Shown in pieces: positions 19,328 to 56,654 of a DNA stretch of 64,000 nucleotides (within the stretch, counting starts at the first letter, position 1; each line of letters opens with the position of its first letter). The stretch lies in NCBI GenBank assembly GCA_002686265.1, contig NZBA01000042.1, positions 10,363 to 74,362 on the forward strand, written 5' to 3'. The position numbers and the translations under genes are program-made. The notes below the pieces were generated by a model. That model was given only the letters and a program-made list of their open reading frames with translations, made no database searches and was not told the DNA's origin. This DNA comes from Planctomycetota bacterium. GTDB lineage: Bacteria; Planctomycetota; UBA1135; GCA-002686595.

Positions 19328-19446
19328 CTGTCTGATCGATCTTTGGAAAAAGTGCTCGTCTGACAGCATCCCGAAGGATCCATGAGGGATCGGAGCGGGG
19401 CACAAGCAAGCGGAGAAGAGAGAACTACCGCCTCCGGGTGACCTGT

Positions 19447-37210: not shown

Positions 37211-38446
37211 ATGCACTCCAAGACAGCTGTCCCCCTGCGTTGTTCGCTTCTCGTCTTCCTGACCCTCCTCTGCCCGCGGGCGTTGGCGGGTGATCCCACC
37301 TCGGCGGTCGAGTCTCCCGCGCCCGCCACCGGGTCCGCCGAGGCCGGCGGGCGCTGGATCCCGGCGGGCGGCACGGCCTGGTCAGCGGCCGAGGGTGATG
37401 TGAGCGTGGAGCTCTTCGGTCGCTTGCAGAACGACTGGGCCTTCAACTCCTCGGGGCCGGGCATGGAGGACGGCACGGAGTTTCGCCGTGCTCGCCTGGG
37501 GGTCAAGGGCACCCTCTACGAGAACGTCTTCTTCAAGGTGCAGTACGACTTCGCCGGTGGCGACGCGGACTTCATGGACACCTACCTCGGCTTCACCGAC
37601 GTCGTAGGCGAAGCGGACGTGAAAGTGGGGCACTTCAAGGAGCCCTTCAGCCTGGAGGAGCTCACCAGTAGCAAGTACCTGACCTTCCTCGAGCGCTCCC
37701 TTCCCAACGCCCTCTCTCCGGGGCGCAACACCGGCGTGGGCATCTCTGACGCCTCGGGCGACGTGACCTGGTCGTTGGGGATGTTCCGAACCTCGGGCAG
37801 CGATGGCGACGACGTCGGCGGTCCCAGCCAGGAGTACAGCGCCACGGCGCGTGTGACCTTCACCCCTGTCTACGCCGACGGCGGAGACGAAGTCCTGCAC
37901 CTCGGCCTGGCCTACAGTGATCGCAGCGCCGACGACGGCGTGGTCTCCTTCGCTACCGGGCCCGAGAACCACCAGGCGCCCGACGTCGTGGACACCGGCG
38001 ACATCATCGCCGACGGCTACGGACTGCTCGGCCTCGAGGGCGCGTGGGTCCACGGCCCGCTCTCGCTCCAGGCCGAGCTGATCCAGGCATCGGTCGACGC
38101 CGCCGACGGTTCGGAGCCCGAGTTCGTGGGCCACTACTTCTACGCTGGCTGGTTCGTCACCGACGGCGATCGACGCAACTACGACCGCAGGTCCGCCGCC
38201 TTCGGCCGCGTGAAGCCCGAGGCCAACTACGGCACCGAGGGCAACGGCGCCCTGGAGCTGACCGCGCGCCTCTCGGCCCTCGACCTCGACGGTGCCGGTG
38301 TCCCCGGTGGCAAACTCGACGACTTCACTCTCGGGGTCAACTGGTACCTGAACCCCAACACGCGCGTGATGCTCAACTACGTCACGGGCGATGAGGGCGG
38401 CATTGACCGCGAGGCTGTCCTGGCCCGCTTTCAGATCGACTTCTGA
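37211..38446 (+). CDS. Phosphate-selective porin O/P family outer-membrane porin
   Basis: Start at MHSKTAVPLRCSLLVFLTLLCPRALA (signal peptide). Contains GRLQNDWAF, FRRARLGVKGTLYENVFFKVQYDFA, VGHFKEPFSLEELTSSKYLTFLERS and a C-terminal ...ARFQIDF. Confidence 0.8.
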   Translation: MHSKTAVPLRCSLLVFLTLLCPRALAGDPTSAVESPAPATGSAEAGGRWIPAGGTAWSAAEGDVSVELFGRLQNDWAFNSSGPGMEDGTEFRRARLGVKGTLYENVFFKVQYDFAGGDADFMDTYLGFTDVVGEADVKVGHFKEPFSLEELTSSKYLTFLERSLPNALSPGRNTGVGISDASGDVTWSLGMFRTSGSDGDDVGGPSQEYSATARVTFTPVYADGGDEVLHLGLAYSDRSADDGVVSFATGPENHQAPDVVDTGDIIADGYGLLGLEGAWVHGPLSLQAELIQASVDAADGSEPEFVGHYFYAGWFVTDGDRRNYDRRSAAFGRVKPEANYGTEGNGALELTARLSALDLDGAGVPGGKLDDFTLGVNWYLNPNTRVMLNYVTGDEGGIDREAVLARFQIDF

Positions 38447-38488
38447 GCACAGCTACATCCTCGAGGTTGCATCCACGAGGCACCTAGG

Positions 38489-38521
38489 AGCCGCGGCTCG
38501 CCTCGTCGGCGAGCCGCGGCT
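38489..38521. terminator. Perfect 14-bp inverted repeat between convergent genes (candidate bidirectional terminator)
   Basis: AGCCGCGGCTCGCC, loop tcgtc, then GGCGAGCCGCGGCT. It sits between the porin stop (38446) and the repeat-protein stop (38567). Confidence 0.5.
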
Positions 38522-38566
38522 GCCGTTCCGCTGCATGAGGCTGCGAGGGCCGACGCCCAGCTCGCC

Positions 38567-40063
38567 TCAGCGCGTCTGGGGCGTGCGCACCCCCTTGGAG
38601 TCGGGCACCGGCGGAGTCGGGTGGTGCGTGGCGGTCGCGGCTGCGTCCCGCAGCTCCCAGCCCTGCCGCGCGGCGGTTCCCTCGTCGGGGGTGCCGTCAG
38701 CCGTGAGTGTGCCGTTCTCCACGAGGATCCGCCGCAGCTCTGCGGGGTATTGGGTGCCGAACTGCTCTCCGCGGACCTCTGGGACGAAGGAGCGGTTCTC
38801 GCGAATCGGCTCGAACTCAGCGAACCCGCATCGGACGCCGTTGACGAAGTAGTGGAAGCGCACGTCGGCGTCACCGCGCACGGCGATCGTCGCGAGAGAC
38901 TCGCCCTCGGTCCACAGGACTGCACGTCCACCCGCGGGGGTGAGTTGCACGGTCAGGCTCTGGGGCTCGCTGACCAGCGCGAAGGCCTCGGGGACGGCGA
39001 TGGTCGCCCGACCGTCGACGATCCGCCCGCTGCCGCGGAAGTAGGTGCCGGACTCGTCACCTTCGAGGCAGACGAAGCGGATCTCCTTGCCGGGATCGGC
39101 GGGGTGGGGCTGGATGAAGGACTTGACGCCGGTCGCCCCCATGTCTCCCCCGGAGAAAACCCCGTAGCCTGCGGGAGACGCGGTCTCGCCGTAGACGCCG
39201 TAGTTCGCCCCCGCGGTCTCGGTCGCGTACCCCTCGACCCCCGCACCCGAGTCGGCGTTGCTCGCGCCGCGCACGCCACTCGTCGTGCCCGTCGCGGCCG
39301 TAGCCCAGCCGAGCACACCCGTACCTTGATCGGAATCAGTTTGACCGGACACGCCTACCGTGGTCCCGGTCAGGCTGCTCGCCCAGCCGAGCACTCCCGC
39401 GCCGTTCGGTGAGTCCGCCTCGCCGTAGACTCCTGAACAGAAGCCTCCGGTGAGGTCGCTGGCCCAGCCGAACACGCCCGTTCCGACGGGGCTGTCGCTC
39501 TCTCCGAACACGCCGGAGTTCGCCCCTCCGGTCGTGTCGCTGGCCCAGCCGAACACGCCGGTACCTGCTGCCGAGTCGGCTTCGCCGGAGACGCCCACCG
39601 TTGCACCGGTGAGGTCCGTGGCCCAGCCGAGGCCGCCGACGCCCGCGTCGCCGTCGCTCTCGCCGTAGAGGCCGAAGGCGCCCGAGCCAGTGGTTGCCGT
39701 GGCCCAGCCGGTGACGGCGCTGACGTCGATGGCATCGGTGGAGGAGAAGATGCCGGGGAGGGCGCCGCCGTCCACGCCGAGCCGGGTGATGGGCGACATC
39801 GTGCCGATGCCCACTTCGCCCGTGGGCGTGACGAAGAACTCGGGGCCCAGGGGCAGGAGCATGCCGGAGGTGGGCACGGTCGAAGCGTTGATGCAGGAGC
39901 CGGGAGAACTCTGGTCGTCGATCGTCGCCGGGCAGGTGGCCAGGGAACTGCTCGAGCCCGATCCGACGGTGGAGACCCGGGGCGTGGTGGAGATGGACTG
40001 GCTCGTGGCCGTGGGTGCGAGAGCGAGGCCGACGACGGAGACGAGGACGAGGTGGTGGTTCAT
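38567..40063 (-). CDS. Secreted repeat protein (tail-fibre-like / beta-helix-like) with conserved C-terminal domain
   Basis: Start at MNHHLVLVSVVGLALAPTATSQS. Seven tandem 26-27-aa units of type GVFGWASDxTGGxxSGVxGESDSPxGT. Then KSFIQPHPADPGKEIRFVCLEGDESGTYFRGSGRIVDGRATIAVPEAF, a pattern I recall from uncharacterised tail-fibre-like proteins. Confidence 0.7.
   Translation of the reverse strand: MNHHLVLVSVVGLALAPTATSQSISTTPRVSTVGSGSSSSLATCPATIDDQSSPGSCINASTVPTSGMLLPLGPEFFVTPTGEVGIGTMSPITRLGVDGGALPGIFSSTDAIDVSAVTGWATATTGSGAFGLYGESDGDAGVGGLGWATDLTGATVGVSGEADSAAGTGVFGWASDTTGGANSGVFGESDSPVGTGVFGWASDLTGGFCSGVYGEADSPNGAGVLGWASSLTGTTVGVSGQTDSDQGTGVLGWATAATGTTSGVRGASNADSGAGVEGYATETAGANYGVYGETASPAGYGVFSGGDMGATGVKSFIQPHPADPGKEIRFVCLEGDESGTYFRGSGRIVDGRATIAVPEAFALVSEPQSLTVQLTPAGGRAVLWTEGESLATIAVRGDADVRFHYFVNGVRCGFAEFEPIRENRSFVPEVRGEQFGTQYPAELRRILVENGTLTADGTPDEGTAARQGWELRDAAATATHHPTPPVPDSKGVRTPQTR
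39149..39715 (-). repeat. Seven tandem 78-81-nt coding repeats inside 38567..40063
   Basis: The protein units are TGWATATTGSGAFGLYGESDGDAGVG / GLGWATDLTGATVGVSGEADSAAGTG / VFGWASDTTGGANSGVFGESDSPVGTG / VFGWASDLTGGFCSGVYGEADSPNGAG / VLGWASSLTGTTVGVSGQTDSDQGTG / VLGWATAATGTTSGVRGASNADSGAG / VEGYATETAGANYGVYGETASPAGYG. Confidence 0.7.
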
Positions 40064-40360
40064 CGCGGAGTGAAGCTGCTCGAGGAGGGGGATGGAAGCG
40101 GACGGGGGGATGGTCTCCGCGGTGATCTGAACCACTCAGGTTCGGTTCGGTTCGCCGCCGCGGCGCCAAATCCGCTCGTCTTCTCGGCCTAAGTCGCTGC
40201 CATGGCGATCGCGTCCGAGGGCGTTCATCTCCAGTGTACCAGCCCGCCGCGGGAGCGCTGAGCGAGCCCGGCGGCGCCCTCATCGCGGGAGAACGCCGGC
40301 CCTAGATGCGCCTAGCGCCGTTTCGGCGCCGCCCCAAAGGGAGCCCGCCGACGCCGCGAG

Positions 40361-41260
40361 TCACCCGCCGAGCACGTCCCGCCAGTCGCGGACGAACTCG
40401 GACCATTGCCTGCCGAAACGCTCGATGTTGACGGTCAGCAGGGGGGCGAGGAGCGCCTGTAGGTCCTCCGGGCGTCCCAGGCAGGCGGCGCGCAGGCGCA
40501 CGAACGGGCCGGGGAGCTCGGGGAGGGGAAGCTCGCCGAAGCGCTCGGGCTCGTCGCGCAGGGGATGGACCCTTCGGGCGTCTTGGAGTAGGGCCGCCCG
40601 CATGGCGCGTGCGATGTGCTCGTCGTCTCCCCCGAGCGGGGGGAGCCCGCCGACCTCGTGCTCGCGGGATCCCGGGGGCCGAGCCCAGAGCTCGCCCGCC
40701 AGGAAGTGATCACGGCAGAGGGCCTCGAACAGCTCGGCGGGTCGCGGGGGCGGCGCGTCGAGGGTCGCCGGAATCAAGGAGTCGTCCTCGCGGCAGCGCT
40801 CGAGGACCTCGTTCGCCAAGGAAGTCCCGACGAGGAAGGTCAGCAGGTGGCCGCGACGTTGCATGTCGCGCGCGAGGACCAGAAGGCGTTCCGTGCGGTC
40901 GGCATCGGCGCCTTCGGCGGCGAGGGCGCGCCGGGAGAGCTCGAGCAAGGGGAGCATCGTCTGTCCGTCCGCGGGCAATCGCTCCGCCGGGCCGGCTAGG
41001 GTGTCCAGGAATCGTGCGAGGAGCTCCGAGCGCTCGCTCTCGCTCTCCGCCGCGCTCCACGCCTCTCCGATCCTCTCCAGAGCTCCCGGCTCGGACGGCC
41101 CGCTCCCCTCGATCCGCGCCCACTCGTGCAGCTCGGCCCAACCGCGTTCCAGCTCGGCCAGCTCCGAGGCCGAGAACCCGACCCGGAACCAACCCGCCCA
41201 AAGCCCGATCGCCGCGAGGGCGGGGAGGGCGAGGAGCGGGAGCCAGCGCCGGATGCGCAT
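40361..41260 (-). CDS. Membrane-anchored hypothetical protein (last gene of the rSAM operon)
   Basis: N-terminal anchor MRIRRWLPLLALPALAAIGLWAGW. Helical, Glu/Arg/Leu-rich, with no recognisable motif. It starts 28 nt downstream of the Rrf2 gene on the same strand. Confidence 0.55.
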   Translation of the reverse strand: MRIRRWLPLLALPALAAIGLWAGWFRVGFSASELAELERGWAELHEWARIEGSGPSEPGALERIGEAWSAAESESERSELLARFLDTLAGPAERLPADGQTMLPLLELSRRALAAEGADADRTERLLVLARDMQRRGHLLTFLVGTSLANEVLERCREDDSLIPATLDAPPPRPAELFEALCRDHFLAGELWARPPGSREHEVGGLPPLGGDDEHIARAMRAALLQDARRVHPLRDEPERFGELPLPELPGPFVRLRAACLGRPEDLQALLAPLLTVNIERFGRQWSEFVRDWRDVLGG

Positions 41261-41288
41261 GCCGAAGGGTCCGCGGCTTCCGGGTGCC

Positions 41289-41741
41289 TCAGGCCCGGCG
41301 GGCCACCGGGTACTCGGAGGCGGGGTTGCGTTCGCAGAACAAGATCAGGTCCGCGAGGGAGGTGTCGCGTACGCGGTCGAGGAAGTCCCCCGATGCCTGC
41401 TTCCAGAACTCGTGCATGGGACAGGCGCGTTCATCGGTGCAGTCGGCCTGGCCGAGGATGCACAGGCGCTCTTCGTTCGCGTTGTCCAGCACCTCGAGGA
41501 TCCGCATCAGGGAGGTCTCGCTGGACGCGGCGGCAAGTCGGAAGCCGCCCTTGCGACCTCGCTGGCTCTCCAGTACCCCCGCGGCCGAGAGGGCCTGGAG
41601 GATCTTGCCCAAGAACGGCGCGGGGATGTCCAGATCGTCTGCGAGCTCGCGCGTGAGCTGGTAGGTCCGCCCGTCGGATTGCTGTGCGAGCCGGGGCAGG
41701 GCGCGGATGGCGTACTCGCTGGATTTGGAGAAGGCGCGCAT
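41289..41741 (-). CDS. Rrf2 family transcriptional regulator
   Basis: SEYAIRAL..LA, the wHTH segment ELADDLDIPAPFLGKILQALSAAGVLESQRGRKGGFRLA, and a Cys cluster CILGQADCTDERACPMH compatible with Fe-S ligation. Confidence 0.85.
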   Translation of the reverse strand: MRAFSKSSEYAIRALPRLAQQSDGRTYQLTRELADDLDIPAPFLGKILQALSAAGVLESQRGRKGGFRLAAASSETSLMRILEVLDNANEERLCILGQADCTDERACPMHEFWKQASGDFLDRVRDTSLADLILFCERNPASEYPVARRA

Positions 41742-41774
41742 GATGGGGGGGGCGGGTAGACGGAGCAGGACTTG

Positions 41775-42518
41775 CTATACCGGCTCGCCGGGCCCATGTC
41801 GACGGGGCATTCCCTCCGACTCCGCCAGATCCAAGAAGCGCGCCACGAGCCGGCGTCCGAGGTCCCTTCCGTCAAAGGCCTCGGCCAGGATCGCCGTCGG
41901 CTCCTCGCCCCGATAAGCGTGACGCGCGAGGTTGCGGCGCAGGAGCCTCTCTGACTCCTCCGGTGGCATCTCGGGGTGAAACTGCACGGCCCAGATCGGC
42001 TTGCCCGGGACACGGAAGCCCTGGACGGGACAGCGTTCGGAGCGGGCGAGGAGGGCGAAGTCCCCGACTCCGGGCGTGACCTCGTCGAAGTGGGAGACGA
42101 AGCACACGAAGCGGCGCTCGATGCCCGCCAGTAGCGGATCGTCGCCCAACAGCTCGATCTCGGTCCAACCGATCTCCGACAGCGGCGCCGCGCGGACCGC
42201 ATCGGGACCGTGGAGAGCTCGTGCGATGGCCTGGTGCCCGAAGCAGATCCCGAACACGGGCACGTCAGTTGCGGCCGCGTCGCGTAGGAGCGCCAGGATG
42301 GGCTCGATCCACGGCAGGGGATCGAGGATCGAGGCCGCGGACCCGGTGAGGAGGATCCCCGCGAAATCCGCCGCAGAGCGCGGAGCGGTCTCGAGCGCCG
42401 CGCGAACCACAACCGACGGCCTTTCGCCCAACAGAGGCACCAGGTTCTGCGCGGCGCCTTGCTCGTCGAGGTAGCTGTCGACGATCAGGTAAGGACGGGA
42501 CTCGGCCTGCACCGTCAC
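41775..42518 (-). CDS. Class I glutamine amidotransferase-like protein (GMP synthase GATase-like)
   Basis: GILLTGSAASI, the nucleophile elbow PVFGICFGHQAIA, and VQFHPE near the C-terminus. Confidence 0.8.
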   Translation of the reverse strand: MTVQAESRPYLIVDSYLDEQGAAQNLVPLLGERPSVVVRAALETAPRSAADFAGILLTGSAASILDPLPWIEPILALLRDAAATDVPVFGICFGHQAIARALHGPDAVRAAPLSEIGWTEIELLGDDPLLAGIERRFVCFVSHFDEVTPGVGDFALLARSERCPVQGFRVPGKPIWAVQFHPEMPPEESERLLRRNLARHAYRGEEPTAILAEAFDGRDLGRRLVARFLDLAESEGMPRRHGPGEPV

Positions 42519-42586
42519 TCCGGCCCCTCAAAGGGCGCGCACGCATCGGTGGGCGCGGGCGTGCTCCGGCTGCGGCGTCCAGAGCG

Positions 42587-44938
42587 TCATTCGAACTTCC
42601 CGCACCACTCACAGTCGCAGTCGAGCTCCGCCCACTCGCCTGAGCGCTCCGTTTTGAGGCCCGCGTAGCCGATCCCGCGCAAGGCCTCCAGGGCGTCGTC
42701 GGAGATGTCGGAGTCCGTGGCCAGGTCGGTCTCCTCGGCACCCGAGAGCCACCCGAGCAGCAGCGAGCGGAGGCGGCCTCCGACCGCAGTCTCGCTATCG
42801 ATCAGGTTGACCTCGCAGCCGTGGTCCTCGCCGATGTCATAGAGCTCGGTCTCATGCCGCTGCCTCGTTGGCGAGTAGTCCCCGTTTCCGGCCGAGTGGG
42901 TCTGAAGGTGCAGGATCAAGTGCCAGCGATCGAAGGTGACCGAAGCCGAGTGACCCGCGTAGGAGATGGCGAAGTTGGGCTCCGGGCTGCGCTTGCCGGC
43001 GACGAGGGAGCGGCCGGGAAACGCCTCCCGCTCGAGCCCCGCGAGGTCCAGGAGCGTGCGCCCGAGGTCGCTGTTCTGGACGCGTTCTGAGACTCTCACC
43101 GCCGGCGGGCAGCCCGGCCAGGAGAGGATCAGCGGCACGTGCAGGGTGTCGGTATAGAGCTCCGCGTGTTCGAAGAAGATGCTGTGCTGCCCGAGGCACT
43201 CGCCGTGGTCGGAGGTGAGGGCGATGATGCCCTCGCGGATGCGCTTGACTCGCAGTAGTGGCCCGAGCTCCGTGTCGAGGTAAGAGACCTCGCCGCGGTA
43301 GCGCTCCTGCTCGTAGTCCATCATCTCCTGCGTGTCCGCGATGTCCTCGCGGAGCTCCGCATCGAACGGCGCGGGCGCCTCGTAGGGGTAGTGGGCGTCG
43401 AAGAAGTGCAACCACAGGAAGACGGGTTCCCGCTGGGAGTCCAGCAGCCAGCGCTCGGCCAACTCGCGCGTGGCGTGCGCGGAGCGTTCGTTGGCGCGCG
43501 GAGCGGCCATGCGGTCGAACCCTTGCCCGAGCCCGCTCAGCGCGTCACCGAGATGGTGGGTGCTGACGGCGGCGAAGGTGCGGTAGCCGTTCGCTCCGAA
43601 GGCCTCGGCCAGGGTCGAGGCACTGCGCGCGAGGGAGGTGACGTTGTCTACGATGCGCGTGTCCCGCGGGTGGCGGCCGGTGAGGATCGCGACGTGCGAG
43701 GGGATCGTGATGTTGCTCGTCGAGTAGCAGTGCTCGAACAAGATCCCGCCCTTGGCCAGTGCGTTGATGTTCGGCGTCCGGACGAGCGGGTTCGCACCCG
43801 CGATCCCGATGTGGTCGGCGCGGTGCGTGTCCGACGTGATCAAGAGCACCGTCGGCGGCTGATCGGCGGGCGTCACGATCCGCGGCGTCTCCAGCAAGGC
43901 GAAGGCCTCGTGCGGGCCCTTGACCTTCAGCTCGAACGACAGGTCGACCCACTCGCCGCCCCAGGCCTCCAAGGGCACCTCCTCGTCGAGCCAACGGGCC
44001 GGTCGGCGAAGGTCGGATTCCAGCCGAATACGCGTCTCGCTGCTGTAGCTCGCGGAGCGCACCGTGACGACGAGGGTGGGCGCTTGGCCCGGGAAGCGCA
44101 GGTTCTCGGGCAGGGTGCACGAGAAGGCGAGGGTTCCGTTCTCGGGGCACAGGAAGCGCTCCCCGACACCGATCTCATCCGAGACGACCGAGGCCATGCG
44201 CTCCTCGCCTTCGACGCCGAGGAGCTCGGGCGGGCTGCCGGGAAGGGGGAACCAGCTGCGGACGTCCTTCCAGAGGAGCTCCACCGACTCGATGCACACG
44301 GGACCGGCGTGGGCGCCGACCTTGAACTGGATCGCATCGATGGGACGCTTGTGGAAGCGCGTGAGGGCGAAGTCGCCGACGATCCGCTGGGGGAGGCTGG
44401 ATGAGCTGACGTCGATCTGGCCGCTGCCTTGGAAGGGAGCGCCGTCGCGCACGAGCAGCATGCGCATGCGCGACTTGCTCTGGATCCAGACATTCGCGAC
44501 CACCTGGTTGAAGGTCGTCGAGTCGATCGGTCCGGGGATCTCGAAGGACTTCTCCATCGAGCCGTGGAGGTACAGCCCCTCGCTCCCTTTGGGAACGACG
44601 CCGTGGGCATCCGGCGGCAGCGCCGCGAGCTCGCAGCGCCCGGAGACGTTGGTCCACAGCGGCTCCTCGCGCGAGGGGACGAAGCGAGCGACGATTCGGT
44701 CGGGTTCGGGAGCGGGCGGAGCGGCGAGCGCTGTCAGCGTCAGGGGGCCGACCTTCGGCGTCGCGTTCACCCTCGCGCCGTGCTCGGAGGTGCTGGCGCC
44801 CGCGTCCACGCACCCCGGCGGGGGATCACCGCACCCACAGACCGTCCCGACGAGGACGACTGCCCAGATGGAGAATGGCGCGCTCGGGTGAGCGGTTCGG
44901 TGTCTCTGGGGCGGGCGGGCGTCCATGGCACCTCGCAC
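42587..44938 (-). CDS. Sulfatase-like (alkaline phosphatase superfamily) enzyme with a novel N-terminal domain of about 330 aa
   Basis: Lipoprotein-like N-terminus (VLVGTVCGC). Catalytic core LLITSDTHRADHIG, TPNINALAKGGILFEHCY, ITIPSHVAILTG and ALTSDHGECLGQH. A Cys-rich tail ELDCDCEWCGKFE. Confidence 0.8.
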   Translation of the reverse strand: MRGAMDARPPQRHRTAHPSAPFSIWAVVLVGTVCGCGDPPPGCVDAGASTSEHGARVNATPKVGPLTLTALAAPPAPEPDRIVARFVPSREEPLWTNVSGRCELAALPPDAHGVVPKGSEGLYLHGSMEKSFEIPGPIDSTTFNQVVANVWIQSKSRMRMLLVRDGAPFQGSGQIDVSSSSLPQRIVGDFALTRFHKRPIDAIQFKVGAHAGPVCIESVELLWKDVRSWFPLPGSPPELLGVEGEERMASVVSDEIGVGERFLCPENGTLAFSCTLPENLRFPGQAPTLVVTVRSASYSSETRIRLESDLRRPARWLDEEVPLEAWGGEWVDLSFELKVKGPHEAFALLETPRIVTPADQPPTVLLITSDTHRADHIGIAGANPLVRTPNINALAKGGILFEHCYSTSNITIPSHVAILTGRHPRDTRIVDNVTSLARSASTLAEAFGANGYRTFAAVSTHHLGDALSGLGQGFDRMAAPRANERSAHATRELAERWLLDSQREPVFLWLHFFDAHYPYEAPAPFDAELREDIADTQEMMDYEQERYRGEVSYLDTELGPLLRVKRIREGIIALTSDHGECLGQHSIFFEHAELYTDTLHVPLILSWPGCPPAVRVSERVQNSDLGRTLLDLAGLEREAFPGRSLVAGKRSPEPNFAISYAGHSASVTFDRWHLILHLQTHSAGNGDYSPTRQRHETELYDIGEDHGCEVNLIDSETAVGGRLRSLLLGWLSGAEETDLATDSDISDDALEALRGIGYAGLKTERSGEWAELDCDCEWCGKFE

Positions 44939-44974
44939 TCTACCACCCGTCCCCCTTCCGTCGTTGGTTTCCGT

Positions 44975-45934
44975 TCAGTCCGCTGGGAGTGTGAGCCCTT
45001 CCAGGAGCCTCTCGAGGTCTCGCTGCTCCCGAGCGGGGTCCACACTCGCCCGCAGGGCGGCGCACCGCGCGCGCAGGACATCGAGGAAGGCGGGGTCGTT
45101 CTCGATGCGTCCCAGTGCGCGTGCCAGCTCCCCAACCTCGCCGACGCCGAAGAACCCGGGGTAGTCGGCGCCCAGGAGACCCTCCGCCGCGGGGATGCGC
45201 GTGGAGAGTATCGGCGTCGTGCACGCGAGGGCTTCGGTCACGACGCCCGGGCCGCCCTCGTTCACCGAAGTCACCACCAGTGCGCGCGCCCGATCCAGCC
45301 GCTCCAGCACCTCCCGCCGCGGGCGCTCACCGAGCCAGCGGTAGCGCGGGTTGCGCTCGCTCTCCTTCTCGGCGAGGCGGCGCATCGCCTCGTCGAGGGC
45401 GCCTCCCACGTGGGTGACGAGCAGGCGCGAAGTCTCCGGCAGCAGACGCGCCGCGCGCGGAGCGAGGAACGGGTCCTTGATCCGTCGCAGGTGTCCGGCC
45501 ACGAGCACCTCGAACCGCTCGGGATCGGGCGGCCCTCCGTCCACCGCGCGCGCCGACTGGGTGATCACGCTCGCGCGGGCGCGGTAGACCGCCGGGATCG
45601 CGTCGAGCACACAGGGATTCAGGGCGACCAAGTGCGTCGCCAGCTCGAGGGCGGGCAGGTGGCCGCCGGCCGCGGGCAGGTCCACGTAGACGTCCGTCCC
45701 GGTCAGCACCAACACCGAAGGCCCCGCCGGGTGCGCGGCGTGGTAGCGCTCGAGCTCCGCCGCGCTGTGCGTCGCGTGCAGGGCCACCAACACGTCCGTC
45801 GCATCCCCGCGCCAGTACTGGCCGATCGTCACCCGGTGCCCCGCGCGCCGCAGGAGGCCGGCCCAGCGCAGGGCGGTGACGCGGTTCCCTCCGCGAGAGC
45901 CGCGTCGGGTGTGGGTGATGATCGCGATCCGCAT
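44975..45934 (-). CDS. GT-B fold glycosyltransferase (family 1-like)
   Basis: MRIAIITHTRRGSRGGNRVTALRWAGLLRRAGHRV at the N-terminus. The C-terminal half has VTSVNEGGPGVVTEALACTTPILSTRIPAAEGLLG (E-x7-E-like donor-binding region). Confidence 0.75.
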   Translation of the reverse strand: MRIAIITHTRRGSRGGNRVTALRWAGLLRRAGHRVTIGQYWRGDATDVLVALHATHSAAELERYHAAHPAGPSVLVLTGTDVYVDLPAAGGHLPALELATHLVALNPCVLDAIPAVYRARASVITQSARAVDGGPPDPERFEVLVAGHLRRIKDPFLAPRAARLLPETSRLLVTHVGGALDEAMRRLAEKESERNPRYRWLGERPRREVLERLDRARALVVTSVNEGGPGVVTEALACTTPILSTRIPAAEGLLGADYPGFFGVGEVGELARALGRIENDPAFLDVLRARCAALRASVDPAREQRDLERLLEGLTLPAD

Positions 45935-45980
45935 CGAGGTAGCGGGTCGGGGCGCCTCGAGGTCGCGGGCGGGTGTCGCC

Positions 45981-47555
45981 TCAGGCCTCGCTTGCCGTGA
46001 CGCCGCCGGTGCCGGAGCCGGGTTGGGTCTGGCCGGTGGCGCGCACGTAGACGTCGAACAGCTTCTGCTCGAGAGGGAGGCGATACTCCCCGCGCCTCAG
46101 GCGCCAGCCGGCGATGCGCGAAAGCAGCTTGCGCATCCACGGCGGCCCCTCGCGCACGTGCTGGTCGTAAATCGCCGCGGTGTTGTTGTAGCGCTGCCAG
46201 GTGTGCCGCACCGAGGGCGGGATGGGTGTGTTGTGCGAGTTGTACTTGTACTCGAAGCACGCCCCCCAGTCGTGGAAGTCCGTCGGCGGCTCGTAGCCGA
46301 GCTCGACCGCAGCCTTGAAGTCCTCGGTTCCCGGGATCGGCCGGAACGGGTAGACCTCCGAACCCGCCAGGGGAAACGCGTGCTTGACCGAGGCCGCCTT
46401 GCGCAGGGTCTCTTCCATCGACTCGCGGGTCTCGCCGGGGTAGCCGATGATCCAGAAGGTCCCGGGCACGATGTTGCGCCGGGCGAGCGCGCCGATCGCC
46501 TTGGGGATGTTCTCGATCCCGATGAACTTCTTGATGCGCTCCTGCATCTCCTTCGTGCCCGTCTCGGCACCGAGCCAGAGCAGGTGGCAGCGCGAGGCCT
46601 CGAGCAGGTCGAGCGTCTCTTCGCGGTAGCGCATGATCGTCTCGATCTCGATGGTGCCGTTCCAGTGGATCGGTACCTCGAGGTCGATCAGCCCCTGGCA
46701 GAAGGCCGTCGTGCGCTTCTCGGCCACGCCGAAGTTCGCGTCCTGGAAGCGCAGCACGTCGAACCGGAAGCGCTCCTGGAGTTCCGCGATCTCCTCGGCC
46801 AGGGCCCGGCCCTCGATCGCCTTCCAGCGGCGCCCGGTGACGAGGGGGCTGCAGCAGAAAGTGCAGGGTTCCGGGCAGCCGAAGCTCGAGAAATGACTGA
46901 ACGCCCGCGGCGGGTTGTTCGGCGTCCAATCGCCGGGCAGGGGGAAGCGGTGGCGGACCTTGAGGTGCGTCGGCTTGACCTGCAGCTCGGCGTAGCGCTC
47001 GAATTCCAACAGGTGCCAGGGAACCGAACCGAACTTGTCGAACCCGACCACGGGTTGGTTGGCGGTGTAGACGATCTGGCCGTCGCGCTCGATCGCGAGG
47101 CCGGGGACTTGCTCTAGGTCCTCACCGCTGTCGAGCGCCGCGACGATCTGTTGGAAGGTGATCTCGCCCTGGCCGATGCAGACGGCGTCGGCGATGCCCT
47201 CGCGCAGGTACATCTCGGGGATGACGCTGGGAAACCACCCGCCCCAGATGATCGGCAGGTCGGGGAAGCGCTCGCGGACGGCGCGCGCGGTCACGTAGCC
47301 GTCGTAGACCTGGTAGCCGAGGATGCAGGAGCTGGCGAACAAGAGCGCGCCGTCGCAGGCCTCGAGCACCTTCTCCATGTAGTCGGCGTCGACCATCGCG
47401 TCAATCAGGACGATCTCGTAGCCCTCGGCGGCGGGCCCGATGGCGATCTGCAGCAGCTCGAGCGGCAGGAGGTCGGCGCTGAACATCTCGCCCCGCTCCG
47501 GATCGGCCCGGTGGGGGAGGAAGAGGACCAGCTTGGGTTTCTTGGACTGGATCAC
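45981..47555 (-). CDS. B12-binding domain radical SAM protein (paralogue 1)
   Basis: The GTG start at 47555 was chosen by alignment with the paralogue (VIQSKKPKLVLFLPH vs MIQRTKRIVLFLPH). It has an N-terminal Rossmann-like B12-binding region and the radical SAM cluster motif SSFGCPEPCTFCCSP (CxxxCxxC). Confidence 0.85.
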   Translation of the reverse strand: MIQSKKPKLVLFLPHRADPERGEMFSADLLPLELLQIAIGPAAEGYEIVLIDAMVDADYMEKVLEACDGALLFASSCILGYQVYDGYVTARAVRERFPDLPIIWGGWFPSVIPEMYLREGIADAVCIGQGEITFQQIVAALDSGEDLEQVPGLAIERDGQIVYTANQPVVGFDKFGSVPWHLLEFERYAELQVKPTHLKVRHRFPLPGDWTPNNPPRAFSHFSSFGCPEPCTFCCSPLVTGRRWKAIEGRALAEEIAELQERFRFDVLRFQDANFGVAEKRTTAFCQGLIDLEVPIHWNGTIEIETIMRYREETLDLLEASRCHLLWLGAETGTKEMQERIKKFIGIENIPKAIGALARRNIVPGTFWIIGYPGETRESMEETLRKAASVKHAFPLAGSEVYPFRPIPGTEDFKAAVELGYEPPTDFHDWGACFEYKYNSHNTPIPPSVRHTWQRYNNTAAIYDQHVREGPPWMRKLLSRIAGWRLRRGEYRLPLEQKLFDVYVRATGQTQPGSGTGGVTASEA

Positions 47556-47580
47556 GGGGCGGGGGAGGAGGCGCGGGCGC

Positions 47581-49173
47581 TCAGGCCGGCGCGTTGGGGG
47601 TGACGCCGGAAGTCTGATCGACCGCCAACACATCTTCCTGCATCTTCCGCCCGGTCAGGCGCACGAAGACGTGGAACAGCTTCTGCTCGATAGGGGCGTT
47701 GAAGTTGTTGTTCTTCAGGCGCCACCCCGAGATCCGGCGCATTGCATTGCGCACGAAACCAGCCCCTTCCTTGGCCAAGCCGTCGTAGAAGGTCGAGGTG
47801 ACCCCGTAGCGCTTCCAGCGGCGGATGACGTCGGCGGGCAGGCTCGTGTCGTTGATCTCGTACTTGTACTCGAGGCAGCCGCCCCACTCCTCGAGGCTGC
47901 GCGGCGGCTCGTAGCCCGAAGCGACGGCGGTCTGGAAGTCCTCGGTCCCGGGGATCGCGCGGAAGGGGAAGATGTCGCTGGGGGAGTTTGGAAACAGGTG
48001 CTTGATCTTGGCCGCGAGGGTGATCGTGGCGTTCATCGATTCCTCGCTCTCGCCGGGGTAGCCGATGATCCAGGAGACCCCGGACTGGATCCCGCGCTCG
48101 TTGAGCCGTCGGAGCGACTTGACGAGATCGCGCTCGAGCTGGATGTCCTTCTTGATCCGCTCCTGCTGCGCCTGGCTACCCGCCTCCGCGCCGAGGGCGG
48201 CCATGTGGAAGCGCGACTCGGCCAAGAGGTCCAGGGAAGCGGGCTTGTAGCGGGCGATGGTCTCGACCTCGTAGGTCCCGTTCCACCAGAAGGGCCGTCC
48301 GGCGTCGATCAGCGCCGAGCAAAAGACGTTCGAGCGCTTCTCGGCCACGCCGAAGTTGGCGTCCTGGAAGCGCAGCACGTTGAAGTCGAAGCGTTCGTGG
48401 CACTCGAGGATGCGTTCGGCCAGCAGATCGCCGGGGATGGCCTTCCAGCGTCGGTTCGTCACCCCCGGGCTACAGCAGAACGTGCAGGGCTCGGGACAGC
48501 CGAAGCTCGAGTAGTAGCTGAAACCGCGCAGCTGCGTTCCCGGCTTCATGTCCCAGGGATCGGCGTACTTGTGGCGGACCTTCCAGTCTCCCGAATCGTT
48601 CTGCAGGGCGACGTACTCCTCGAAGTCGATTAGGTGCCAGGGGCAGTCGGGGATCTGGTCGAAGCCGACGACGGGGCGGTGGGGCGCATAGACGGGATTG
48701 CCGTCGCGCTCGACGACCAAGCCGGGGACCTCGGCCAGGTCCTCGCCGCTCTCGATGGCGGCCAGTGCGTCGCGGAAGGTCAGCTCGCCTTGGCCGAGGG
48801 CGACGGCGTCGGCGACGCCCTCGGACAGGAAGCGCTCGGGCAGGACGCTGGGGAACCATCCGCCCCAGAGGATCGGGAGGTCGGGGAAGCGCTCGCGCAC
48901 CGCCCGCGCCACCGCCGCGCCGTGCGCGACCTGGTGGCCGAGGATGCACGAGGTCGAGAAGCACAGGGCGCCGTCGCACAGTTCCATCAGCCGCGCCATG
49001 TAGTCGGGGTGGACCATGGCGTCCACGATCACGCACTCATAGCCGTCCCGGTCGGGGATGGCGGCGATCTGCAAGAGCTCGAGGGGCAGCAGATCCGCGC
49101 TCACCCGCACTCCCTGCGCCGGATCGGCCCGGTGAGGGAGGAACAGGACGATGCGCTTGGTCCGCTGGATCAT
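47581..49173 (-). CDS. B12-binding domain radical SAM protein (paralogue 2)
   Basis: MIQRTKRIVLFLPHRADP ... LPLELLQIAA ... ILWGGWFPSV ... SSFGCPEPCTFCCSPGVTNRRWKAI. It is colinear with 45981..47555 over its full length. Confidence 0.85.
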   Translation of the reverse strand: MIQRTKRIVLFLPHRADPAQGVRVSADLLPLELLQIAAIPDRDGYECVIVDAMVHPDYMARLMELCDGALCFSTSCILGHQVAHGAAVARAVRERFPDLPILWGGWFPSVLPERFLSEGVADAVALGQGELTFRDALAAIESGEDLAEVPGLVVERDGNPVYAPHRPVVGFDQIPDCPWHLIDFEEYVALQNDSGDWKVRHKYADPWDMKPGTQLRGFSYYSSFGCPEPCTFCCSPGVTNRRWKAIPGDLLAERILECHERFDFNVLRFQDANFGVAEKRSNVFCSALIDAGRPFWWNGTYEVETIARYKPASLDLLAESRFHMAALGAEAGSQAQQERIKKDIQLERDLVKSLRRLNERGIQSGVSWIIGYPGESEESMNATITLAAKIKHLFPNSPSDIFPFRAIPGTEDFQTAVASGYEPPRSLEEWGGCLEYKYEINDTSLPADVIRRWKRYGVTSTFYDGLAKEGAGFVRNAMRRISGWRLKNNNFNAPIEQKLFHVFVRLTGRKMQEDVLAVDQTSGVTPNAPA

Positions 49174-49458
49174 CGGGGCGTCGGAGGGCCGGGGCGTCGC
49201 TGGGGAGCCGGGGGGGCGAGGTGTGGACCGTGGGTCGGAAACCTCACGCAGACGTTATATCACTCCCGCGGCCCTTGGGAGGCGCGCGGCGTCCGTCCCT
49301 CCTATCGTCCCAGGCGGGCCGAAGGATGATTCCTTTCAGCGTCCCCCATCCCTAGGACCGAATGCGGCTCCGCCCCGGGGAGGAGCCCCCGGAATGCCCG
49401 GAGGAGACTCCGGCGGCAAGTTCCTCGCCCATGGGCGCGGGCGCCGGGCCGGCGGAGG

Positions 49459-50688
49459 TCAGTAGCTGGTCTTGGCCCAGGCCCTCCAGGCGGCGTCGAA
49501 TTCGGCGTAGGAGAGGCCGATGAGCTCCCTGAACAGGCGCCGGTGCTTCCCGGGCAGGTCGCTCCCGTCGGGGAGGCCCTCCTCGTCGCGGAAGCTCTTG
49601 AGGGCGCCGATCAGCTCGGAGAACCCCTCCGGCTCGGTCTGCACCAGGAAGTCGACCATCGACCAGGTGGCGTAGTGGTCGGGGAGCTCCATCTGGCCGA
49701 AGTTGTCCAGGCTCATCAGCTCCGCCATGCGCGGGGCATCGTCGCCCGCGATGATCTTCCTCACCTCCAATCCCCAGCGCGCCTTGCGGGACATCTGGGG
49801 AACGGCTCCTTCGCTGCCATCGAAGGTGTTGTGGCGCGGGTTGATCTCGCGCTCGATGAAATGCGCCAGACCCTCGTGGAGCCAGATCGGCGTGTCGTAG
49901 CTGTAGTGCTTGTAGCCGTCGAGCAGGTTGTGGGTCAGGTTGAAGGCCACGTGGCCGTGGAGCGCGGTGTCCTCGGTGAGGCGCCCTTGGCGCGTGTGGG
50001 TGATCAGCACCAGCGAGTCGCGGTCGATCACGTTCCAGCGCTGGGTGCGCTTGATCTTCAGACCGAAGTGGCGCTGGAGGAACATGACGCTCGCGCCCTC
50101 GCTGGGCAGGATCAGGACCTCGTACTTTCCTTTCTGGCCGAGGTGCGGCCCGATCCCCCAGTACTCGCCGTCGGGCGTCCAGTTCGCCTTGCCGACGGGG
50201 AACACGGAGGCGTCCACGCGGATCAGCTCACAGAACCGGTCCCACACGCGTTCCGCGCGCTGGGCGTACATGTGGGCGCGCAGCCACGGATCGAGCGTCG
50301 AGGCCTTGGGATCGACCTTCGGCAGCTTCTCCCTCAGGGCTACGAGCTCGGCGCCGATGGCCTTCTTCTCCTTCTGCGGGACGCGGTAAGGACCGAGGGC
50401 GAAGCCGAGCTCGAAGTGGGCGCTCTCGATCCACTTGATGTCCGAGACGCCCATGAACTCGTCGATCTCCGCCGTGTCGGTCGTGCCGAATTCGAAGCCG
50501 CCGAGGGAGACGAGGCCGGCGCGCTCGAGGGCCGCCGGTTCACCCCGCGTGTAGGGATCGGTGCTCGGGTCGTTGGCCGGGACGCGGTGGCTGCGTTGGG
50601 CGGGAGCCTTCGCACAGAGCCCGCAGACCAGGGCGAGGGCGAGGAGCAGCCAGCGGCGGACTCGCCGTGCCAACGCCTTTCCGCTCAT
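49459..50688 (-). CDS. Secreted HExxH protein (DUF1570-like putative metallopeptidase)
   Basis: Start at MSGKALARRVRRWLLLALALVCGLCAKAPA, preceded by GGAGGAGG 7 nt upstream. The zinc-binding-type motif WLHEGLAHFIERE is present. The long N-terminal extension in the track is Arg-rich and non-coding. Confidence 0.7.
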   Translation of the reverse strand: MSGKALARRVRRWLLLALALVCGLCAKAPAQRSHRVPANDPSTDPYTRGEPAALERAGLVSLGGFEFGTTDTAEIDEFMGVSDIKWIESAHFELGFALGPYRVPQKEKKAIGAELVALREKLPKVDPKASTLDPWLRAHMYAQRAERVWDRFCELIRVDASVFPVGKANWTPDGEYWGIGPHLGQKGKYEVLILPSEGASVMFLQRHFGLKIKRTQRWNVIDRDSLVLITHTRQGRLTEDTALHGHVAFNLTHNLLDGYKHYSYDTPIWLHEGLAHFIEREINPRHNTFDGSEGAVPQMSRKARWGLEVRKIIAGDDAPRMAELMSLDNFGQMELPDHYATWSMVDFLVQTEPEGFSELIGALKSFRDEEGLPDGSDLPGKHRRLFRELIGLSYAEFDAAWRAWAKTSY

Positions 50689-51320
50689 TCGCCGACCTCC
50701 TCCATGGGGTACTTCCAGCGCTCGGGAACGACCTTCCGAAAGGCGGGGTCCACGATCACCAGACGCTCCTCGAAGACAGCCAGGGGTAGGCCGACGCGGT
50801 CGCTCCGCCAAGGGAACTCGACCACTTCGAGGACGAACCCCTCGCGTACGGCGGGCGCGGCGCCATCGCGCTCGAGGAGGCGGACCAGGAAGAAGAAACC
50901 GGCCCCCTCGCAGACCTCCGACCACGTCCCGGGTTCGAGCGCGCGCACGGCGAGCCACAGGTCGAGCCCCAGCTCGTTCCAGGTGCCCCGCCGCTCGCGA
51001 GGGGGCGCGGCGCCTTCGTCGCCCGCGGACCAGGCGGTGGCCGCCGCGCGCGCGGCAGCGCGCTCGCGCCCGCACCCGATGCGCCCGACGGCGCGCGTGA
51101 ACAGAACGTGGGTCAGGGCTTGGCGGCGCAGCATCGATCGGGTGTACGAGGGCTTGAGCGCGGCCAGGGCGTCGGCTGTCGTGTCGACCTCCTCGACGCC
51201 GATCACCTCTCCGCCGACGACCACTGCCGTCCCCGCGGGCCAGGTGTCGGGCTCCGTGCCCGTCTCACGGCCGCAGGCGCCCGCGAGCGCCAGGGCGAAC
51301 AGTCCCAGGGCGCGATACAC
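50685..51320 (-). CDS. Putative lipoprotein, hypothetical
   Basis: Lipobox-like LFALALAGAC. Its stop overlaps the next start (ATGA at 50685..50688). The GTG start at 51320 was chosen to avoid overlap with the upstream gene. The start is uncertain. Confidence 0.45.
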   Translation of the reverse strand: MYRALGLFALALAGACGRETGTEPDTWPAGTAVVVGGEVIGVEEVDTTADALAALKPSYTRSMLRRQALTHVLFTRAVGRIGCGRERAAARAAATAWSAGDEGAAPPRERRGTWNELGLDLWLAVRALEPGTWSEVCEGAGFFFLVRLLERDGAAPAVREGFVLEVVEFPWRSDRVGLPLAVFEERLVIVDPAFRKVVPERWKYPMEEVGE

Positions 51321-51378
51321 GCTGAAGGCTAGCGGCCGCCGGCGCCGCGGTAACAGGAGGGCGGCGCAATCGGGCGCT

Positions 51379-52119
51379 TCACGGCTGGTCGGTCGAGGCG
51401 GCTTGGTCGAAGGCCCCGACGAACCGCAGTGCACGATCCACGAGGAAGCGGTAGGTCTCGGTCACGTTTTCCTCGACCTCTCTCAGGTCTCCCTCGCTGT
51501 CCAGGGCGCGAAAGGTGCCCTGGTTCTCGACGTACAGCGAGCGCGGATCCTGGTGGAAGGACTCGATGCGCAGGGCGTTCGCCGTGGGGCTCTCCTCCCC
51601 GGGCGGGAAGACGAGACGCAGGCCGAGGATGCGGGGGTCGCGGCCGAGGCACTCGACCTCCTCGGCGACGCCGAGCAGCCCGTCCTTCATGAACTCGATC
51701 GAGTCGGCGTAGTTACGCGGGTTGATCAGGCTGCGGATCGTCACCTGTTGGGCCAGGATCTGATCGACCCCGCAGCGCTCGGTCGCCATGGTCGCGATGG
51801 TCCGCACGCGCTCGGCGAAGGAGTCGCAGGTCAGCCCGCCGTACTCCTCGCGGAACTGGATTCGGTCGGGTAGGAACACGACCTGCGAGACGACGCCGGG
51901 GCGGTTCGCCGGGTTCGTCAGGAGCGGGCCCATGGGCGTGACGGCGAAGCTCGAGTAGGGCGGGTCGCCCTGCCCGAACAGCTCGTTGTGGAGTTGCTGC
52001 ACCGCCTGGTTGTCGGGCGTCTTCGCGGCGTGGAGGAGGTCGCACAGGAAGGCGATCGTCCGCGGGGTATAGCTGGTAGTGGCCATGGGCGTGCGCTGGG
52101 GAACCTCTCCCGCGGCCAT
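51379..52119 (-). CDS. Hypothetical protein (possibly TIGR04255-like)
   Basis: 246-aa ORF with coding-like composition. The start is uncertain (ATG 52119 or 52086). The family guess rests on length and general pattern only. Confidence 0.5.
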   Translation of the reverse strand: MAAGEVPQRTPMATTSYTPRTIAFLCDLLHAAKTPDNQAVQQLHNELFGQGDPPYSSFAVTPMGPLLTNPANRPGVVSQVVFLPDRIQFREEYGGLTCDSFAERVRTIATMATERCGVDQILAQQVTIRSLINPRNYADSIEFMKDGLLGVAEEVECLGRDPRILGLRLVFPPGEESPTANALRIESFHQDPRSLYVENQGTFRALDSEGDLREVEENVTETYRFLVDRALRFVGAFDQAASTDQP

Positions 52120-52349
52120 AGGATAACGCCTGCGCCCGCGAGGTGGACGGGCCAGGTGGAGACCCTCGGATGGGACGCCCGCCGCGACCGCCCTCATGGC
52201 CCCTGCCCTCCGGGACCGAAAAAACCCCCTCGAGCCTCACCGCCCCTGACCGGTGGCCGTAGGCTTCCTGCCCACAAACACGCTCCCGGGGCCTTTTCGC
52301 TTTTTCAAGCCCAGCCGGCAGGCCGCCTCGAACCTCAGAAACCAGAGTC

Positions 52350-54137: not shown

Positions 54138-54267
54138 CCCGAGCGCGTCAGGCCCGGCGGCTGATCGCCCCCTCCCCAGGGACGCCCAGCCCTTCGGGCG
54201 GCCGGAGCCCCTCCCGTGAGGGGTGCGGCTGGACATTTCCGCCCCGCGAGCGCCCACTACGCGATAG

Positions 54268-56172: not shown

Positions 56173-56654
56173 GCGGGCTGGTCACTCGAGAGCAGGCAGA
56201 CCGCCTGGGCCGCGACGCCTGCGCCGTCCGCCAGGGCGCCCAGGCCTTCCAGGCTCTTGCCCTTGACGTTGACCGCGTCCGAAGCGATGCCGAGCAGAGC
56301 TGCGATGCGTTCGCGCATCGCCTCGCGCGCGGGCGCGATGCGGGGCCCCTCGGTCGCGATCACCACATCGACGTTCTCCACCCGCCAACCCGCTGATCGC
56401 ACGCGCTCCACGACCTCTTCCAGCAGGGCGGCGCTGTCGGCGTCCTTCCAGGCTGCGTCGTCATCGGGGAAGAGCGTGCCGATGTCCGGCAGGCCCGCCG
56501 CTCCGGTCAGGGCGTCGATCACGGCGTGCAGGACGGCGTCGCCGTCGGAATGGCCGGCGGGACCCGTCGCGTGGGGGAGTTCGATTCCGCCCAGGATGCA
56601 GGGCCGGCCTGGCTCCAGGCGGTGCACATCGAAGCCGATGCCCACGCGCATCAT
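56169..56654 (-). CDS. ispF: 2-C-methyl-D-erythritol 2,4-cyclodiphosphate synthase
   Basis: RVGIGFDVHRL, LGGIELPH, GHSDGDAVLHAVIDAL and DIGTLFPD are present. Confidence 0.9.
   Translation of the reverse strand: MMRVGIGFDVHRLEPGRPCILGGIELPHATGPAGHSDGDAVLHAVIDALTGAAGLPDIGTLFPDDDAAWKDADSAALLEEVVERVRSAGWRVENVDVVIATEGPRIAPAREAMRERIAALLGIASDAVNVKGKSLEGLGALADGAGVAAQAVCLLSSDQPA

Follow-up and report, generated by a model that had tools for sequence, protein, structure and literature searches.

We describe a string of seven genes in a bacterium of the Planctomycetota (GTDB lineage Bacteria; Planctomycetota; UBA1135; GCA-002686595), in which a gene of the selenosugar synthase family SenB directly follows two genes for cobalamin-domain radical S-adenosylmethionine (radical SAM, rSAM) enzymes. 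The window, i.e., the whole stretch of DNA that was analysed, comprises 64,000 nucleotides (nt) of contig NZBA01000042.1 (assembly GCA_002686265.1, positions 10,363 to 74,362 of the forward strand) and has a G + C content of about 70%; positions are counted from its first letter unless a related locus is named. Genuine genes were told from spurious open reading frames (ORFs) by third-position GC content (GC3), which is of the coding type (0.83-0.93) in all seven minus-strand ORFs across 40361-49173. From its 5' end, the string contains the following genes:

47581-49173, minus strand: rSAM1, 530 amino acids (aa), cobalamin-domain (class B) radical SAM enzyme of an uncharacterised subfamily
45981-47555, minus strand: rSAM2, 524 aa, paralogous class B radical SAM enzyme
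44975-45934, minus strand: SenB-family selenosugar synthase (Se-glycosyltransferase), EGGP subclade, 319 aa
42587-44938, minus strand: lipoprotein-like enzyme of the alkaline phosphatase (AP) superfamily, 783 aa
41775-42518, minus strand: class I glutamine amidotransferase (GATase)-like protein, stand-alone, 247 aa
41289-41741, minus strand: Rrf2-family regulator of the iron-sulfur (Fe-S) type (PF02082)
40361-41260, minus strand: anchored protein with no assigned family, 299 aa

With these starts, the genes are separated by 25, 46, 36, 68, 33 and 28 nt; the longest ORF of rSAM2 extends to 47633, and the start homologous to that of its relatives (VIQSKK) lies at 47555. A previous interpretation made from the letters alone (hereafter the sequence-only reading) had listed the same seven genes and gaps, which the ORF and GC3 analysis and independent public gene calls on an identical contig (JASLRR010000016.1; Planctomycetes metagenome-assembled genome (MAG), GCA_030743855.1) confirm, as well as the untranslated stretch of 285 nt ahead of rSAM1, which is found at 49174-49458. 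It had also proposed a single transcription unit. No terminator-like sites were detected inside the string, and a conserved element precedes rSAM1 (see below); co-transcription of the seven genes is consistent with the sequence, from which alone it is predicted.

The 319-aa glycosyltransferase matches TIGR04348 (selenoneine biosynthesis selenosugar synthase SenB) over residues 3-312 with 330.1 bits, above the equivalog cut-off of 300, and the SenB entries 8jjq and 8fbx of the PDB at E 1e-47. It shares about 40% identity with SenB proteins of known structure; a SenB that is 51% identical to it sits in a canonical SelD-SenA-SenB cluster. The earlier assignment to the GT-B glycosyltransferases stands as far as the fold is concerned, with matches to GT4-type Pfam families including Glycos_transf_1, but the TIGR04348 score places the protein in the SenB family and not among generic glycosyltransferases. 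By these matches it is a SenB-family selenosugar synthase, the activity of which we infer from the family.

Roles of individual residues were taken from the mutagenesis of SenB, which found N20, T23, T83, T85, K158, E231 and E239 to be important (PMC10891094). The window SenB retains N20, T23, H58, T83, T85, D86, Q131, R155, K158, E231 and E239, and both K158 and the binders of the uridine diphosphate (UDP)-sugar (N20, T23, E231, E239) are kept in every rSAM-linked homologue whose alignment covers them. Five of the six residues of the selenophosphate pocket (N20, H58, R61, T83, T85, R155) are identical. Because the score exceeds the SenB equivalog cut-off and K158 and most of the selenophosphate pocket are kept, the acceptor is probably selenophosphate rather than a lipid or glycan. 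The identity of SenB is likely to shift the chemistry of the locus from a glycoconjugate or lipid head group to selenium metabolism.

The window protein belongs to a distinct SenB subclade. Its EGGAHV motif reads EGGPGV, and the pattern of the subclade is EGGP(G/A/T/S)V. A metagenome scan gave 80 further SenB loci, in which SelD, SenA and EgtD were then identified. SelD, SenA or EgtD occurred in the flanks of 44 of the 72 loci with an EGGA-type SenB and in none of the 20 loci with an EGGP-type SenB. In a neighbour-joining tree the EGGP SenBs form one clade, with a mean identity of 53% among themselves and 43% to other SenBs. Every EGGP locus that has upstream sequence carries a B12-radical-SAM gene directly upstream of SenB. 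This same-strand adjacency with short gaps (about 10-150 nt) was found in about 13 distinct loci, which range in G + C content from 61 to 72%, share just 43-56% identity in SenB, and have reshuffled downstream genes, including inserted che clusters. A literature search found no published link between SenB and radical SAM enzymes. In one related locus (L006; related loci are given by their L numbers), the SenB frame at 13195-13860 matches residues 1-157 of the window protein alone and is followed by the AP gene; this SenB may be decaying or frameshifted.

The two genes ahead of SenB encode paralogues with 58% identity, each of which matches PF02310 (B12-binding) and PF04055 (radical SAM), which confirms their description as class-B-like cobalamin radical SAM enzymes. 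Both carry the cluster motif C-P-E-P-C-T-F-C of the CxxxCxxC type (CPEPCTFCC in rSAM1) and thus the combination of N-terminal B12 domain and radical SAM core that defines class B. They share these features with BchE, HpnJ, HpnR, PhpK, Sden_1168 and the ladderane-associated TIGR04072 family, but membership in any of these was dismissed on scores: against the curated class B subfamilies of NCBIfam the pair reaches 44-108 bits (62-108 for the best matches), far under the cut-offs of 360-750. The top curated score of the pair is to BchE (107.6 bits; cut-off, 481), as is that of rSAM1 itself (79 bits). Unlike the characterised families, the pair has no hopanoid, bacteriochlorophyll or phosphonate genes nearby. 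The possibility raised with the first description, that the pair falls in a characterised subgroup such as the hopanoid or bacteriochlorophyll methylases, is therefore not borne out. The top PDB sequence match of rSAM1 is TokK, in the B12 domain only (E 6e-9 over about 110 residues). Since the NCBIfam scores lie below the cut-offs and the match to TokK is distant, both enzymes represent an uncharacterised class B subfamily. Its close relatives number in the hundreds within the Planctomycetota; homologues of rSAM1 with 62-91% identity occur in planctomycete MAGs and in the cultured Saltatorellus ferox Poly30 and Rohdeia mirabilis Pla163. One related locus (L007) has a third B12-radical-SAM gene at 17902-19443.

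Every window protein was compared with 80 genome loci carrying flanks of 10 kb. The string is a mosaic operon with a fixed rSAM core and accessory genes that come and go independently. The pairing of rSAM1 and rSAM2 is retained in 54 of the 61 loci with enough sequence, and the pair makes up the fixed end of a locus that is conserved within a planctomycete clade, being syntenic in 49 of 56 loci with upstream genes that lie outside 40361-49173:

49459-50688, minus strand: DUF1570-like HExxH secreted protein (DUF1570 match in 12 of 22 members)
50685-51320, minus strand: lipoprotein of the upstream locus (synteny)
51379-52086 or 52119, minus strand: cytoplasmic protein with the fold of the TATA-binding protein (TBP) (AlphaFold2 model with a predicted local distance difference test score (pLDDT) of 94)
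52350-56172, plus strand: divergent pair of a secreted 595-aa protein and an ATP-binding cassette (ABC) exporter half-transporter (synteny in most loci)

The weak DUF1570 match was all that Pfam and NCBIfam yielded for the upstream proteins, and profile searches against PDB sequences gave nothing significant. For the TBP-fold protein, 189 homologues were found, the named ones from Planctomycetota, and its best structural matches in the PDB are to TBP at a template modelling (TM) score of 0.4-0.5, from which no function follows. In the divergent pair, the exporter matches PF00664 and PF00005, and the secreted protein has a weakly parvulin-like C-terminus (E about 0.5). Among the genes for the TBP-fold protein, the lipoprotein and the DUF1570-like protein, 59 related loci also carry a HEAT-like gene (about 300 aa); it is missing from the window and from L004, the closest relative of the window locus.

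The genes downstream of the rSAM pair are far more variable. Among the 54 loci that extend far enough downstream, 10 have SenB behind the rSAM genes. Most of the SenB-positive loci then continue with GATase and Rrf2, and all three genes are confined to one subclade. Rrf2 is the last gene of the unit in eight related genome loci and also in L172/L173. The AP enzyme is limited to four loci (the window, L004, L006 and L172/L173) and the anchored protein to two (the window and L004). Of the neighbourhood originally described, the rSAM pair thus recurs in relatives, together with upstream genes that the description had missed, but the AP enzyme and the anchored protein hardly do. In several relatives a complete chemotaxis cassette (CheA, CheW, CheY, CheB, CheR, CheX) lies between SenB/GATase and Rrf2 (L005, 15187-19287; L006, 17378-19591; L024, 12442-14565, with an additional globin-coupled methyl-accepting chemotaxis protein; and downstream of SenB in L081/L089).

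Among the accessory proteins, the AP enzyme has a sulfatase-fold domain at residues 362-645 (PF00884 match, 362-634; PF01663 also matches). Its AlphaFold2 model (pLDDT 86) retrieved S1 sulfatases in a full-length Foldseek search that was dominated by this domain (E 1e-24, TM about 0.65 on the target). The enzyme shares the fold with the S1 sulfatases and with the Thr-nucleophile AP enzymes of the NPP (nucleotide pyrophosphatase/phosphodiesterase) and EptA/LtaS types. It differs from the former in lacking the formylglycine motif C/S-x-P-x-R: at the position of the sulfatase C-x-P-x-R it reads T-I-P-S-H, with the Thr aligned to the formylglycine Cys of choline sulfatase. It differs also in its N-terminal extension, which is confidently modelled as two all-beta modules (residues about 62-355) and which, in a set of 1.84 billion representatives, marks out a small family (87 clusters) whose members all have the same architecture of about 770 aa. 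Cys36, which is lipobox-like, T411 and H415 are conserved across this family, other members of which occur in unrelated gene contexts. The T-I-P-S-H alignment, the sulfatase fold and the conserved Cys36 uphold the earlier view of a Thr-type extracytoplasmic lipoprotein of the AP superfamily.

The sequence-only reading had gone further and proposed that a generic GT-B glycosyltransferase and an export-side AP transferase build or attach an rSAM-modified glycoconjugate or lipid head group. The GT-B fold with its Glycos_transf_1 matches, the extracytoplasmic lipoprotein and the ABC exporter in the conserved locus would suit such a scheme. We nevertheless consider it very unlikely, as the glycosyltransferase scores as a SenB with K158 and most of its selenophosphate pocket in place, the AP enzyme is absent from all but four rSAM loci, and genes for the biosynthesis of lipids or polysaccharides are lacking.

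The AP enzyme might also belong to phosphorus nutrition. Phosphate-regulon genes (porin O/P, pstSCAB-phoU, PhoD) repeatedly flank the rSAM/Rrf2 locus in four different arrangements, in relatives at 2665-9287 (L090), 3720-5874 (L172) and 13380-15101 (L001), and in the window as one gene:

37211-38446, plus strand: phosphate-selective porin O/P

In L090, pstSCAB-phoU adjoins Rrf2, as do PhoU and porin O/P in L172, and in S. ferox PhoD adjoins rSAM2. Together with the PF01663 match and the T-x-P-S-H motif, which we take to resemble the Thr motif of the NPP enzymes, these neighbours would fit a Pho-type phosphodiesterase for phosphorus scavenging that was recruited beside pst, phoU and porin genes and is unrelated to the rSAM enzymes or selenium; possibly the whole tail of the string takes part in the same phosphate starvation response. 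We regard this as improbable. A 4-nt overlap of the AP gene with the stop codon of rSAM2 in L172 points to translational coupling with the rSAM genes, other members of the family have unrelated gene neighbours, and SenB, GATase and the rSAM pair would be left unaccounted for.

The GATase-like protein matches PF00117 (E 1e-17) and Peptidase_C26 (E 3e-6), and its motifs G-x-C-F-G-H-Q and F-H-P-E, which hold the Cys-His-Glu triad, are kept in 11 of 11 orthologues, in agreement with the earlier description as class I glutamine amidotransferase-like. Neither the window nor the related loci contain a synthase partner, and the protein may instead act as an amide or gamma-glutamyl hydrolase, as the match to Peptidase_C26 suggests. 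The regulator likewise proved to be what it had been called, an Fe-S-type Rrf2 protein: it matches PF02082 (E 2e-26, 93 bits), reaches the cut-off of no equivalog model, and has the winged-helix domain and three Cys ligands of the IscR/NsrR/RirA type, with the ligand set C-x6-C-x5-C-P-x-H kept in nine of nine orthologues. The anchored protein has an N-terminal hydrophobic segment (residues 7-27) and matches no Pfam or NCBIfam family; its only homologue found is that of L004 (65% identity).

Selenium use by the organism is indicated elsewhere in the window by a probable selenocysteine gene, which the ORF lists split into 24551-25252 and 25325-25744:

24551-25744, plus strand: probable selenocysteine gene with an in-frame TGA at 25250-25252 within FGSYT-U-PPF

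The reading frame runs from an EF-hand N-terminal part through the UGA into a deiodinase-like thioredoxin-fold domain; 13 nt 3' of the UGA there is a GC-rich hairpin. A UGA-selenocysteine gene implies selenocysteine machinery, which makes it very probable that the organism possesses SelD and selenophosphate. In the 64-kb window, neither a tRNA-Sec nor, by tblastn with queries from canonical loci, any match to SelD, SenA or EgtD was found. Among loci L001-L091 the sole match to these queries is one weak SenA-like sequence in L041, and the same queries gave 23 SelD, 29 SenA and 15 EgtD matches among the 80 metagenome SenB loci. In ovs strains, senB/senC can lie apart from their partner genes on the chromosome (PMC11030361), a precedent for a SelD encoded elsewhere in the genome of the window organism.

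The 285-nt spacer ahead of rSAM1 (about 150-550 nt across loci, at times with inserted genes) contains one conserved element:

49234-49270, minus strand: promoter/operator-like element of about 35 nt (nhmmer and comparative alignment)

The element consists of a TAnnAT-like box, a 5-bp palindrome, T-N-(A/C)-C-G-N4-C-G-(T/G)-N-A, and then AGRGTT. With nhmmer it was located 34-167 nt before the rSAM1 start in 22 loci, i.e., the window and 21 relatives (e.g., L020, 9915-9949). One position of the palindrome covaries (AU in 13 loci, CG in 6), and 82.7% of cells are paired, compared with 32-52% when the partner columns are slid. The element is likely a promoter with an operator or 5' hairpin and supports the start of the unit assumed in the sequence-only reading. 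An assignment of the palindrome to Rrf2 was tried and failed, the element being present also in loci without an Rrf2 gene within 10 kb. No Rfam match to a riboswitch or other known RNA was obtained in 38000-57000, and a sigma-70 promoter scan of this 70% GC sequence gave nothing.

The same spacer bears on a cluster for a ribosomally synthesised and post-translationally modified peptide (RiPP), in which the twin rSAM enzymes would methylate a ribosomal peptide, the DUF1570-like protease would process it and the ABC transporter would export it. B12-rSAM enzyme, protease and ABC exporter are a familiar RiPP combination, and weak NCBIfam matches to the RiPP methyltransferases ApyD and rSAM_ocin_1 were seen among the proteins of the string. 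Clustering of all-frame peptides from 47 spacers (46 related loci and the window) revealed, however, no conserved small ORF, the only shared peptide being the N-terminus of rSAM1; the other conserved genes of the locus encode proteins of 211-634 aa. No recognition element or precursor family was detected, and the DUF1570-like protease is secreted and has no C39-type domain. A RiPP cluster is highly improbable.

Further features of the window lie apart from the string. On the strand of the string, 225 nt beyond its seventh gene, lies an ORF of 522 aa (38567-40135, minus strand; start codon uncertain). Gly-rich repeats of the type G-V-x-G-W-A-x-D-x-T-G recur in it many times; it has no family match and may encode a secreted repeat protein. 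Tandem paralogues of 368 aa each (20923-22029 and 22095-23201, both minus strand) are 65% identical; each has a signal peptide, is rich in Cys in its C-terminal half and matches no Pfam family. A second sulfatase-fold protein (239-2638, minus strand; 799 aa) has C-terminal tetratricopeptide repeats and an architecture unrelated to that of the AP enzyme.

The nearest known counterparts are the sen and ovs clusters, beside which the window would hold a SenB-based selenium cluster with other partner enzymes. With the sen cluster of Variovorax paradoxus (SenC (SelD), SenB and SenA; bioRxiv 10.1101/2022.04.13.486033, PMC10891094) the window shares a SenB with the same catalytic and sugar-binding residues and five of the six pocket residues. 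Unlike the sen cluster, it has no SenA (an EgtB-like sulfoxide/selenoxide synthase), SelD or EgtD; its SenB falls in a separate EGGP/K61 subclade and is accompanied by two B12-rSAM enzymes, a GATase and Rrf2. The ovs cluster (OvsA, OvsM, senB/senC) reuses the selenosugar cassette for another product (PMC11030361). The window lacks its OvsA-type enzyme and N-pi methyltransferase, and does not have the arrangement of SenB beside SelD and SenA or OvsA that marks sen and ovs clusters; the candidate selenium acceptors here would be oxygen-independent rSAM enzymes. The carbapenem enzymes ThnK/TokK, ThnL and ThnP offer a parallel of another kind, with several cobalamin rSAM paralogues per cluster, of which ThnL makes a thioether (carbon-sulfur) bond with a small thiol and another methylates (PMC9407657). 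Sequence similarity to this set is negligible (the short TokK match of rSAM1), and the window contains no carbapenam genes.

Tentatively, and with somewhat less than even confidence, we read the string as a selenosugar-fed radical SAM pathway under Fe-S Rrf2 control. SelD, encoded elsewhere in the genome, would provide selenophosphate, which SenB, judging from its family, would join with a UDP-sugar to a 1-seleno-sugar. The rSAM pair would take up this selenosugar as selenium donor or substrate; one paralogue would form a carbon-selenium (C-Se) bond on a radical-activated carbon in the manner of ThnL, and the other would methylate. The GATase-like Cys-His-Glu hydrolase would process the product or act beside it, as would, in this genome, the extracytoplasmic, phosphodiesterase-like AP lipoprotein with its Thr nucleophile. 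Rrf2 would tie expression to the Fe-S or redox state via the palindrome upstream of rSAM1. Such a division of labour between the rSAM paralogues is chemically plausible because cobalamin radical SAM enzymes do more than methylate, ThnL coupling a radical-activated carbon to a thiol; we know of no cobalamin radical SAM enzyme that forms a C-Se bond.

Several observations speak against this pathway. The pocket residue R61 is replaced by His in the window SenB and by Lys in most members of the subclade; L006 and L008 have Arg. There is no SelD in the window or in any rSAM locus, and neither an acceptor substrate nor a scaffold enzyme or precursor peptide was identified in the loci. In 44 of the 54 loci with downstream sequence the rSAM pair stands without SenB; the basic function of the rSAM enzymes therefore needs no adjacent SenB. 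In the rSAM1 tree the SenB-positive loci are confined to a single clade, so that the adjacency may go back to one event that was then inherited. L004, in which rSAM1 is 91% identical to that of the window, has cleanly lost SenB and kept the rest; L172 has rSAM2 followed by AP and Rrf2, with the AP gene overlapping the rSAM2 stop; and L081/L089 have one rSAM gene, SenB and Rrf2 but no GATase. Accessory genes that vary so independently speak against an obligate multi-step pathway. With the rSAM pair widespread on its own and the closest relative having the operon without SenB, the seven genes can no longer be regarded as one conserved pathway unit.

The restriction of SenB to one clade, its absence from most rSAM loci, its loss in L004 and the independent variation of the accessory genes favour an inherited juxtaposition, in which the rSAM pair serves an unrelated substrate together with the secreted and exporter proteins encoded upstream, and SenB, with or without GATase, is a separate unit placed beside it in one ancestor; its selenosugar would then be the end product, serving to store, detoxify or traffic selenium. 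The heterogeneity of the neighbours in SenB-negative loci fits as well: 104 downstream ORFs, pooled and scanned with Pfam, matched 102 families without a common partner, the commonest, PntB (6 ORFs), being read as synteny and not as part of a pathway. On the other hand, where upstream sequence exists, the EGGP SenB is never found away from a B12-rSAM gene, and it never stands beside SelD or SenA; the adjacency has outlasted strong divergence and downstream rearrangement, and in L081/L089 SenB still lies directly behind the single remaining rSAM gene. We consider the juxtaposition a serious but doubtful explanation and retain the selenosugar-fed pathway as our working interpretation.

To our knowledge, selenoneine and ovoselenol are the only small molecules into which known pathways place selenium. 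In both, SenB and SelD are paired with an O2-dependent iron enzyme. A third selenometabolite route, in which the selenosugar of a dedicated SenB subclade is consumed by cobalamin rSAM enzymes, with C-Se bond formation or remodelling in the absence of oxygen, is a rather unlikely outcome; if true, this route would yield a hitherto unknown planctomycete selenometabolite under Fe-S/Rrf2 control. With the EGGP SenB clade, which where upstream sequence exists always lies behind B12-rSAM genes and never stands beside the usual partners, there is a concrete candidate for selenium chemistry of a new kind. Even if the linkage should be fortuitous, the re-annotation holds, with a SenB in place of the generic glycosyltransferase, an operon of mosaic make-up and a selenocysteine gene in the window. 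The selenium link would give the first functional handle on a twin-rSAM locus of marine and freshwater Planctomycetota, including Saltatorellus and Rohdeia, which at present is annotated only with the misleading label "BchE-like".

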